The notes below the pieces were generated by a model. That model was not told the origin of the DNA. It saw nothing but the letters and a program-made list of their open reading frames with translations, and made no database searches. Below, one piece after another: positions 35,867 to 39,999 of a stretch of 64,000 bases of DNA. The first letter of the stretch is position 1, and each line of letters opens with the position of its first letter. The position numbers were made by a program, and so were the translations under genes. The DNA is from an uncultured Dehalococcoidia bacterium (GTDB lineage Bacteria > Chloroflexota > Dehalococcoidia > Lucifugimonadales > UBA3495): NCBI GenBank assembly GCA_950072105.1, contig CATMOE010000010.1, positions 14,387 to 78,386 on the forward strand. The letters are read 5' to 3'.

Positions 35867-36967
35867 TCAGTCTACCAACAAGGGCAATTGTTCGTCGGGC
35901 GGACCGCTGGTGTTCGCAGCGTCCAAGTCCAATGGATAATATACTCTCGAACGGGTTTTGCCTTCCAGCCTAAATACACCCACATTCACCATCTCGTTCA
36001 GATCCCGTGAGGCCGTAGCCGGGGAAACGCCGGTGATTTCCATGTAATCCGACCGGGTCATCTGCCCGGTCTGGAGTGCGAAGACGTAGGCGTCTACGTG
36101 GCGCTGGGGCCAACCGCTGGCGGCCCAAGTGTCACGAACTAGCTGCATCATCCGGTGCCATCCCGTCGTCCTTGCCACTAGATCGTCGGAAGCAGTCTTC
36201 AGTACCATGATGGAGAACTCCAGCCAGGGCGTGGCATCATACCCCACGGAGAACTCTTGCCCCAATGACCTACCGATGGCAGAAAAGTAATCGTCTTTGA
36301 GGTTCAAGAAAACCGACTCGGTGGAGATCAACTTCCTGAACCCGTAGGGCGACCGCTGCAGCAGCAGGGTTTCCAGCCCTCGAGCCGTCCTTCCGTTTCC
36401 GTCCCAAAAGGGGTGGATGGCAACCAGATGCAGGTGGGCGATCCCAGCTTTCAGAACAGGGTGCACTCCGTCATCCTCCTTCAGCCATAGGGCGAAGGAA
36501 CGCATCAACCCGGGAACGTCCCTCTGGTTCGGTGTTCGGAAATCGCCGACGGAGTTAGGTCCCTTCCGGTACACACCCGGTGTGAGCATTTCCGAGGCAG
36601 TCGATATGAAATATCGGTTGAGCTGCCGCATCACAAGTTCGTCTACCGGAATATCTCCTTGATCGCTGATGAAGTCGATGAAGTCGTAGGCCTGAATAGC
36701 GTTGATGTTGGCCTGCTCATCCTCGGTAAATTTGCCCGTGAACCCCCCGCCGGCCAGATTCCTTACGGCTGTTTCGTCAAGGGTAGCTCCCTCGATCCTG
36801 GTCGTACCGGAGGACCGTCGAACTTGGACATCCCGATGAAACCAGGCTTCGTGCTTGGGCATCAACAGCATATTCTCGATCAACCATTGGTTCCGTTCGA
36901 TTCCATCCAGGCAAACCTCGATATTGGGTGTAATGGTATAATTCGGCTGGAAGATACTATCATTCAT
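35867..36967 (-). CDS. Fic family protein with C-terminal wHTH
   Basis: Canonical HPFWDGNGRTAR; GTTRIEG inhibitory-motif-like segment; VSPATASRDL HTH. Confidence 0.9.
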   Translation of the reverse strand: MNDSIFQPNYTITPNIEVCLDGIERNQWLIENMLLMPKHEAWFHRDVQVRRSSGTTRIEGATLDETAVRNLAGGGFTGKFTEDEQANINAIQAYDFIDFISDQGDIPVDELVMRQLNRYFISTASEMLTPGVYRKGPNSVGDFRTPNQRDVPGLMRSFALWLKEDDGVHPVLKAGIAHLHLVAIHPFWDGNGRTARGLETLLLQRSPYGFRKLISTESVFLNLKDDYFSAIGRSLGQEFSVGYDATPWLEFSIMVLKTASDDLVARTTGWHRMMQLVRDTWAASGWPQRHVDAYVFALQTGQMTRSDYMEITGVSPATASRDLNEMVNVGVFRLEGKTRSRVYYPLDLDAANTSGPPDEQLPLLVD

Positions 36968-37094
36968 GGCATAGCAACCTAAGTAATACTCTCTGTTTGA
37001 TAGATATGATAGTATCATTATATAACATTCGGGTCAACCTGCCCTACACAGAACCAACTCCAGCCGTCCCACACGCAGTGACCGGCCACGCCTG

Positions 37095-37124
37095 TTGACA
37101 GTTGTTGACGTTCTCAGGTAGACT
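37095..37124 (+). promoter_or_regulatory. Promoter for the leader peptide and reductase operon
   Basis: TTGACA (37095-100), 18 bp, TAGACT (37119-24); the same hexamer pair occurs at 47060-47088. Confidence 0.6.
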
Positions 37125-37132
37125 TCATTCCA

Positions 37133-37195
37133 ATGAGTCTCGTATCGATTAACTGCTGCATCTGTACCTGTCCCCCCACAGAGGGGGCAGGCTAG
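37133..37195 (+). CDS. Cys-rich leader peptide MSLVSINCCICTCPPTEGAG
   Basis: ATG..TAG, 20 aa, 4 Cys codons within 6 positions; below the ORF track size cutoff. Confidence 0.85.
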   Translation: MSLVSINCCICTCPPTEGAG

Positions 37196-37232
37196 TCGTT
37201 CGTCCAACGACATCGTCTTAATCGACACCTGC

Positions 37233-37269
37233 GCCCACCAAGCACGCCGTTTGGTGGGTTTTTTATTTT
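37233..37269 (+). terminator. Attenuator (intrinsic terminator) hairpin
   Basis: GCCCACCAAGC-ACGCC-GTTTGGTGGGT then TTTTTATTTT, about 20 nt before the reductase start. Confidence 0.85.
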
Positions 37270-37290
37270 GCCAAATCGTAGGAGGCCACG

Positions 37291-39174: not shown

Positions 39175-39999
39175 GTGGCAGCCTCGCTAAGCGGCAAAGT
39201 CGTCGCCTTTTTGGAATCCCGCATGCAATCGGAGATGGCGGGGCTGATTGAACGCCATGGAGGCACACCCTACCCTGCTCCGGTCCTTCAGGAGGTCTAT
39301 CTGAAGGACAGCCCTGAAGTGCGGCGATTGATTCAGGATATCTGCGCCGAACAGGTCGATATAGTCGTCCTGCTCACCGGCGTGGGCACCCAAGCCCTCG
39401 TCGAGACCGCCGCGTCCATGGGCCTGGAGCAAGATTTTCTCCGGAGCCTGAACACCCGGACCATCATCGCCCGCAGCCCCAAGCCCGCCAGGGTGCTGCG
39501 CCGGCACAAGATTCACATCGACGTCATGCCGCCGGAACCCTACACCTCACAGGACTTGATCCAGGCCATACAGGATATGGACTTGTCCGGAAAAGAAGTG
39601 GCGGTGCAGGCATACGGCGGGCCCAACAGCTTCCTCAAACGCAGTTTGCAAGAAAGCGGCGCTAATGTTCGAGAAGTCACGCTGTATACCTGGGGGCTTC
39701 CCGAGGATACGGCGCCGGTGGTGCGGCTGATCGACGATCTGGCCCTGGGCGCGATCGATGCCATGGCATTCACCAGCCAACCCCAGGTTGAAAACCTGCT
39801 GACCGTCGCCGCTCAGATGGGAAGGGACGAATCCTTGAGGAAAAGTCTTGACCAACCGTCGCTGGCGATCGCTTCCATAGGACCGGTTTGCAGCCGGAAG
39901 CTGAGGGAGAAGCACATCAAGATCGACGTGGAACCGGAGCACGTTCACATGGGCAACCTGATAGTCGCCCTAGCCGAACACTTGGGTCCGGACGTTTAA
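39175..39999 (+). CDS. hemD: Uroporphyrinogen-III synthase
   Basis: ESR...L.ER.GG, LTGVG, ARSPKP, AFTSQPQV, SIGPVC. Confidence 0.85.
   Translation: MAASLSGKVVAFLESRMQSEMAGLIERHGGTPYPAPVLQEVYLKDSPEVRRLIQDICAEQVDIVVLLTGVGTQALVETAASMGLEQDFLRSLNTRTIIARSPKPARVLRRHKIHIDVMPPEPYTSQDLIQAIQDMDLSGKEVAVQAYGGPNSFLKRSLQESGANVREVTLYTWGLPEDTAPVVRLIDDLALGAIDAMAFTSQPQVENLLTVAAQMGRDESLRKSLDQPSLAIASIGPVCSRKLREKHIKIDVEPEHVHMGNLIVALAEHLGPDV

Follow-up and report, generated by a model that had tools for sequence, protein, structure and literature searches.

The window, a 64,000-nt stretch of DNA from an uncultured marine Dehalococcoidia bacterium of the SAR202 group, carries a siroheme-dependent reductase gene that is preceded by a promoter, a short Cys-rich open reading frame (ORF) and a predicted terminator (Table 1). 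The start codon of the short ORF lies 8 nt downstream of the -10 element and has no Shine-Dalgarno (SD) sequence upstream of it. Transcription usually begins about 7 nt downstream of the -10 element, which in this leader and its relatives would mean a 5' untranslated region of 0-3 nt. The ORF contains four Cys codons (37154, 37157, 37163 and 37169) and reads GAG where most relatives have TAG just before segment 2, so that it extends four codons further. No Rfam riboswitch, T-box or leader family matched the window at the gathering score. Divergent from the leader lies a gene with a Fic domain and an HTH-like C-terminus (35867-37018, minus strand). In genome G002 this place directly upstream of the promoter is taken by a FAD oxidoreductase gene, and the Fic-domain gene therefore looks like a recent insertion. 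Contigs from RNA libraries, which as contigs give no starts or ends, span the promoter (X3) or run across the terminator into the reductase (X1, X2); among the RNA contigs listed, X1, X2 and X4 show a gap upstream of 37146, which was not counted as evidence.

Table 1. Features of the leader and of the genes behind it (window positions).
Feature	Position	Strand	Basis or remark
Sigma-70-type promoter, TTGACA-18-TAGACT	37095..37124	+	-35 at 37095-37100, -10 at 37119-37124, spacer 18 nt
Near-leaderless leader ORF, 20 aa, MSLVSINCCICTCPPTEGAG	37133..37195	+	stop codon at 37193-37195
Two predicted control Cys codons, TGT 37163 and TGT 37169	37163..37171	+	register to segment 2; mask model
Segment 1, 5' arm of the 1:2 protector hairpin	37167..37175	+	folding
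Segment 2, partner of segment 1 or segment 3	37183..37191	+	folding
Small spacer hairpin, GTCGTT/AACGAC	37195..37211	+	folding
Segment 3, 3' arm of the antiterminator, overlapping the terminator base	37228..37236	+	2:3 pairing counts
Predicted intrinsic terminator, 3:4 stem (37233-59) and U-rich tract TTTTTATTTT	37233..37269	+	folding z -3.8; covariation
SD of the reductase, AGGAGG	37280..37285	+	sequence
Siroheme/4Fe-4S reductase, NIR_SIR family, 624 aa	37291..39165	+	likely ferredoxin-type sulfite reductase
Uroporphyrinogen-III synthase (HemD family)	39175..39999	+	9 nt downstream of the reductase; likely siroheme supply

The reductase possesses NIR_SIR domains, and the four-Cys cluster pattern is present in 117 of 118 orthologues. 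Its best PDB match is NirA of Mycobacterium tuberculosis (1zj8, E 1e-48), and none of the curated NCBIfam models was passed at cut-off. The PRKFK motif of the reductase aligns with PRKYK of 1zj8 and with PRKWN of plant nitrite reductase, and the second Lys of PRKxK is found in all 118 orthologues. In sulfite reductases this second active-site Lys occupies the position of an Asn in plant nitrite reductases. The M. tuberculosis enzyme is called a sulfite reductase in the title of a reference cited in PMC8092218, and the related NirA of Pseudomonas aeruginosa is a nitrite reductase (PMC8092218). Because of the latter homologue, homology alone cannot decide the substrate, and the case for sulfite leans more on the Cys leader. 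The enzyme in the window is likely a sulfite reductase.

Conservation of the leader was followed within SAR202 Dehalococcoidia at 113 closely related orthologous loci, some of which represent the same genome twice, yielding 99 unique leaders. The initial annotation, made from the window alone, had proposed the promoter, the near-leaderless ATG at 37133 and the Cys peptide. All three are present in the window, and a promoter followed by a short Cys ORF was recovered by script in 112 of the 113 loci; the single miss contains Ns, and its leader is visible by eye. The guess of a Chloroflexota lineage was also borne out, as the record titles of the relatives name Dehalococcoidia, SAR202 or Chloroflexota. 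Among the unique leaders, 91 of 99 have the -35 hexamer TTGACA (spacer of 17 nt in 75), and in 94 of 99 the start codon lies 6-9 nt downstream of the -10 element. At least one Cys is encoded in all 99, at least two in 93 and at least three in 85, and Cys makes up 20% of the leader residues; these counts are not independent, because the genomes are kin. In other families of the order, a Cys ORF with a hairpin was seen by eye at 11 of 17 reductase loci. Beyond the order, a credible Cys leader within 300 nt was found at none of 23 reductase loci at the class or phylum level.

What is conserved within these peptides is the placement of Cys codons relative to the RNA. N-terminal residues vary freely and the number of Cys ranges from 2 to 6, and yet segment 2 is preceded by a Cys codon at a distance of 20 nt in 70/90 leaders and of 14 nt in 69/90. 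The distance from stop codon to terminator stem is 21-88 nt in the reductase leaders. Codon choice is skewed as well: TGT accounts for 216 of 343 leader Cys codons (63%), against 75 of 736 (10%) in the reductase body and 22% genome-wide. UGU is decoded by wobble and is more prone to starvation. Pairing of segment 1 may also drive part of this TGT bias.

The whole leader folds into the 1:2 and 3:4 hairpins at -49.3 kcal/mol (z -4.0, 0/200 shuffles), and removal of segment 1 changes the fold to 2:3 (z -2.25, 4/200 shuffles). In the window, the 2:3 pairing contains one G-G mismatch and takes up no more than the lowest 3 bp of the terminator. Modelling across relatives used 88 leaders. Nine rows (8 unique) without the terminator motif were left out, although hairpins are visible in them, and L061, L014 and L019 were dropped because their anchors failed; 39 of the 88 leaders entered the covariation alignment. 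In that alignment, the terminator stem 3:4 shows 34 compensatory cells in 5 pairs (0/500 shuffles). The 2:3 helix is paired in 92.9% of cells, a value reached by 0/500 shuffles and compared with 33-60% in slid controls, but it has just 3 compensatory cells, and its count of covarying pairs was equalled in 128/500 shuffles. For 1:2, 83.9% of cells are paired, above slid controls but not above column shuffles, and the 39 leaders contain no compensatory change in it. Cognate duplexes of segments 2 and 3 average -14.4 kcal/mol, against -13.9 +/- 0.18 for permuted pairs. Among orthologues, Cys codons are conserved and the terminator covaries, while compensatory changes are few in 2:3 and absent from 1:2. 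The initial annotation had also described segments 1, 2 and 3, the terminator and the small hairpin. All are present in the window, but the sequence of the spacer hairpin is not conserved among relatives; spacers fold better than their shuffles in 65/88 leaders.

A ribosome-mask model links the Cys codons to these alternative structures. Averaged over the 88 leaders, P(2:3) amounts to 0.18 without a ribosome, 0.29 with a stall at early Cys codons, 0.66 and 0.93 with stalls at the key Cys groups, and 0.01 with a ribosome placed on the stop, an outcome stable for footprints of 3-12 nt. For the window, the model releases segment 2 only with stalls at the codons at 37163 and 37169. When the full terminator is included at equilibrium, 3:4 prevails and P(2:3) falls to 0.05, so that antitermination must be kinetic and co-transcriptional.

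Taken together, sequence comparison and modelling indicate that the leader very probably acts on a siroheme sulfite reductase operon as a trp-style attenuator responsive to cysteine, and would switch the operon on when charged tRNA-Cys is scarce. The trp-style geometry suggested at the outset is carried by the Cys register, the pairing counts of 2:3 and 3:4, the mask model, and further copies of the leader before other sulfur genes. In the proposed mechanism, transcription would begin 0-2 nt upstream of the AUG and the ribosome would load without an SD. With plentiful cysteine, the ribosome would reach the stop codon and cover segment 2, 3:4 would form, and transcription would end near 37264-37267. 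If the leader stayed untranslated, 1:2 would form, followed again by 3:4 and termination. Under cysteine scarcity, a ribosome stalled at TGT 37163 or 37169 would mask segment 1, and the freed segment 2 would capture segment 3 before segment 4 is synthesized. The base of the terminator could then not close, and the reductase and hemD would be transcribed.

The same data bear on two other readings. First, the terminator might be a fixed, leaky brake and the Cys peptide a small metal- or redox-binding protein without any sensing in cis. The prevalence of the terminator at equilibrium would suit this, and CxC motifs can bind metals. However, the Cys register follows segment 2 rather than the start of the peptide, the rest of the peptide is unconserved, and segment 3 has conserved bases beyond the terminator stem that pair with segment 2; we consider this reading extremely unlikely. 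Second, control might be translational or Rho-dependent, similar to that of mycobacterial polycysteine leaders, with the hairpin and U tract being incidental. The reductase SD is mostly paired by prediction, and the mycobacterial Cys leader that was tested acts by SD occlusion and not by termination, according to an excerpt of bioRxiv 10.1101/834739. However, in each of the three ribosome states SD pairing stays at 0.6-1.0 for most positions and thus offers no switch, and the terminator covaries and shows a conserved overlap with segment 3, which makes such control very unlikely.

The leader is not confined to the reductase. A paralogous promoter, Cys leader and terminator occur elsewhere in this genome (G000; L132:2044-2225, G000:C59 13043-13224), directly after a gene for an Rrf2-family regulator and ahead of a MoeB/MoeZ-like gene and a cysteine synthase gene. 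A covariance model found only these two copies, reductase and moeZ/cysM, in the genome. A script recovered the moeZ/cysM copy in 22 of 30 relatives, and inspection by eye added 4. The mask model backs 2:3 in 9-10 of 17-18 moeZ leaders, and in the moeZ leader of this genome at the penultimate Cys only. As the Cys leader heads both operons, sulfide production and the fixation of sulfide into cysteine likely belong to a single regulon gauged by the ribosome. Across 81 genomes of the order, the covariance model gave matches in 19. Twenty matches were read, 3 of which look like noise, and the genes that come next include those for CysH, TauE, rhodanese, DsrE, cysteine synthase and a further NIR_SIR protein. 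This genome has six sulfite-oxidase-like genes of family PF00174, and no Cys leader was seen at any of them; one of the six lies in the window from 14096 onward (plus strand, L323), behind a cupin-like gene.

Some relatives carry a leader subtype with the fixed peptide DDLFHLC. In the 301 genomes of the order that were scanned, the motif was matched 52 times, in 39 genomes (reversed control, 1), all 30 examined matches are short leader ORFs, and a FastTree phylogeny requires 3-4 changes for this type. These leaders (L008, L009, L014, L033, L292-L321) often encode one Cys, occur in up to four copies per genome, and precede reductase, CysH-like, moeZ, rhodanese and cysteine-dioxygenase-like genes. 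They bear on a third reading, in which the leader is an arrest peptide whose nascent chain stalls on a small molecule such as cysteine, sulfide or sulfite and operates the same RNA switch. Such a peptide could explain a fixed sequence with synonymous variation and often a single Cys, and also the position of some DDLFHLC leaders before a cysteine-dioxygenase-like gene (a weak Pfam match). However, DDLFHLC is missing from the window leader and most relatives, whose N-terminal residues are unconserved and whose Cys number ranges widely, and the Cys codon is TGT in 52/52 matches, which points to sensing at the codon level. An arrest peptide is therefore very unlikely, and DDLFHLC is possibly a stall-enhancing peptide.

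A different arrangement of Cys codons and terminator was found at the sat-aprB-aprA operon of this genome (L131:2379-2475, G000:C35 10878-10974). Here the end of sat encodes a Cys tail rich in TGT, and 16 nt further on comes a strong terminator that lies ahead of aprB-aprA. A separate classical Cys leader before aprBA, which would have pointed to an assimilatory role, was considered and rejected: the supposed short ORF is the C-terminus of Sat, and there is no segment 2. Among 60 unique sat ends, all of one family, 53 have aprB in the locus, and of these 51 have the Cys tail and 50 the terminator. Six of the seven without aprB in the locus have neither feature, and the seventh has aprB 2.9 kb further on. 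The stop codon lies 5-16 nt before the stem in 51/51, and the last Cys codon a median of 27 nt before it. Tails differ in length and in Cys number (1-5), and their last Cys is TGT in 51/52, against 20% TGT in the Sat body. No RNA antiterminator is predicted in the Sat tails. The terminator remains folded in 50/51 cases when free and in 49/51 when the ribosome is stalled, and a 9-nt ribosome mask at the Sat stop codon alone leaves the stem folded in 44/51. Among the RNA contigs listed, none crosses the sat-aprB terminator, which was not counted as evidence.

A terminator this close to a stop codon is unusual in the genome. Among 125 predicted terminators after 3085 codon-scored genes, the median distance from the stop is 39 nt; 3 of the 125, including that of sat, lie at 3-16 nt, and 3 overlap the stop. 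Predicted terminators of this genome thus tend to keep clear of the 16 nt that follow a stop codon, which suggests that transcription and translation are coupled in SAR202. A genome-wide scan for the inverse geometry gave 31 rows, in which by eye sat alone combines a Cys tail, a clean terminator and a following operon. In Escherichia coli, a ribosome represses a terminator near the stop codon and slower translation raises termination, with a fitted limit of 27 nt for the reach of the ribosome, as described in an excerpt of PMC4824070. By these E. coli data (PMC4824070, in excerpt), a ribosome at the Sat stop may suppress termination. Under cysteine scarcity, a ribosome stalled in the Sat tail would no longer block the terminator 5-16 nt past the stop, and aprBA would be shut for that reason. 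From the geometry and modelling, we see an even chance that the tail exerts such inverse control and that aprBA is on when cysteine is plentiful.

Almost as credible, though somewhat short of even, is the alternative that the tail is a feature of the protein (a metal, redox or persulfide site) or acts classically through a structure that was not found, or that the terminator merely lowers the aprBA-to-sat ratio. The median position of the last Cys, 27 nt from the stem, equals the fitted limit given in the PMC4824070 excerpt, and a ribosome stalled there might thus interfere with the stem as well. CysH was not found in this genome (92% complete), and AprBA could therefore be its sole APS reductase. 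G016 has the Cys without the terminator. In G085 (L231/L353), the Sat stop precedes a Cys codon, leaving a Cys-free end 37 nt before the terminator; this early stop would silence aprBA if control were inverse, or it is an assembly error. A Cys ORF was not seen at five sat-less aprB loci of family f1 or at most aprB loci of other families, and the terminator leader of family f12 is of another kind and lacks a Cys ORF. The f12 leader (L331, L333-L338), conserved over about 200 nt and with a strong terminator before aprB, may be a regulatory RNA of an unknown type; no Rfam match at E up to 1 was obtained for six aprB loci from families f12 (four loci), f14 and f61.

Other observations speak against a protein feature and for inverse control. 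The tail varies in length and Cys number, and TGT is far commoner at its last Cys than in the Sat body. In G021 (L235, G021:C8) the Sat body upstream of aprB is lost and no Sat homology is left at the locus, yet a short ORF remains that has a Sat-like start, contains 3 Cys and reaches its stop 3 nt ahead of the retained terminator. G069 has lost both Cys and terminator. In five genomes of family f14 (L340-L344, L350), an unrelated Cys-ending ORF lies 5-14 nt upstream of a terminator ahead of aprBA. One f14 genome, G048, has two HdrA-like genes after aprBA.

The two arrangements could work as opposite gauges of cysteine: under scarcity, the attenuator would open the reductase and cysteine synthase operons, and the Sat tail would shut aprBA. 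AprBA would then oxidize surplus sulfite. We hold this combined picture with half confidence. DsrA was not found in this genome (92% complete). Sulfite reductase has been reported absent from the aprBA-bearing SAR202 group in passages of PMC5864207 and PMC9416657, the latter not being consistent on this point; one of the two lists a transcribed nirA in the group. A 'NirA' gauged by cysteine is better read as a sulfite reductase, and if the two-gauge reading is true, the 'nirA' of SAR202 group III would be the sulfite reductase reported missing. Arguments on the direction of SAR202 AprBA have so far drawn on phylogeny and on the lack of dsr, and the direction would become testable if the Sat tail works as predicted. 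In that case, the end of an ordinary enzyme gene would serve as an amino-acid sensor for the genes that follow, an arrangement missed by searches for leaders.

How do these elements compare with known systems? A 2010 survey of attenuation reportedly covers Chloroflexi. In the literature searched, which mostly omits subscription papers, we found neither a Chloroflexota Cys attenuator nor a description of an amino-acid sensor in an enzyme tail, and the excerpts of PMC11109978 and PMC2965389 contain no Cys case. The reductase leader resembles the E. coli trp and Salmonella his attenuators (scheme in an excerpt of bioRxiv 10.1101/834739) in its late control codons within a short ORF, its 1:2, 2:3 and 3:4 alternatives, and an intrinsic terminator that follows the stop at more than 20 nt, the distance given for classical attenuators in the PMC4824070 excerpt. 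Every trp/his feature tested was found in the SAR202 leader except covariation of 1:2. In contrast to trp and his, the SAR202 leader senses cysteine by this reading, is near-leaderless without an SD, belongs to Chloroflexota, precedes a siroheme reductase, and is unrelated in sequence.

Actinobacterial Cys leaders had been named in the initial annotation as known attenuators, and the likeness holds for the leaderless, Cys-rich short ORFs but not for the mechanism. The mycobacterial Ms5788A-type short ORFs (bioRxiv 10.1101/834739, in excerpt) are likewise leaderless, rich in Cys, located before sulfur genes and present several times per genome. However, the tested case acts on SD access without termination and has long Cys runs rather than the CxC of SAR202; pairing of a Cys tract with the SD in place of termination was not found in the SAR202 leader. 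The actinobacterial cys leaders in an excerpt of PMC1262725 lack a conserved terminator, which the SAR202 leader has. Since actinobacterial leaders show SD occlusion or no terminator, the closest precedent is instead uORFC-8-2 before Rhodobacterales cysS, a Cys uORF with an intrinsic terminator that is predicted only, according to the passage in PMC8632094. Both have Cys codons in the uORF and a terminator, with stalling presumed to permit read-through. They differ in phylum, in the target gene (a tRNA synthetase) and in codons, with tandem Cys and dominant UGC in Rhodobacterales versus CxC and UGU in SAR202; an antiterminator and a multi-operon regulon are not described in the PMC8632094 passage. 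Cysteine attenuation by a Cys uORF and terminator is thus already predicted, and the SAR202 leader is not categorically new; it would carry classical attenuation over to cysteine sensing in Chloroflexota, including a full antiterminator and a regulon of several operons. The nearest counterpart of the Sat tail is pyrBI-type occlusion (PMC4824070, in excerpt), which shares a terminator within reach of the ribosome, no RNA antiterminator, and termination raised by slowed translation. In pyrBI a nucleotide pauses the polymerase, whereas in the Sat tail an amino acid would slow the ribosome, and the sensor would be the end of a full-length enzyme gene.
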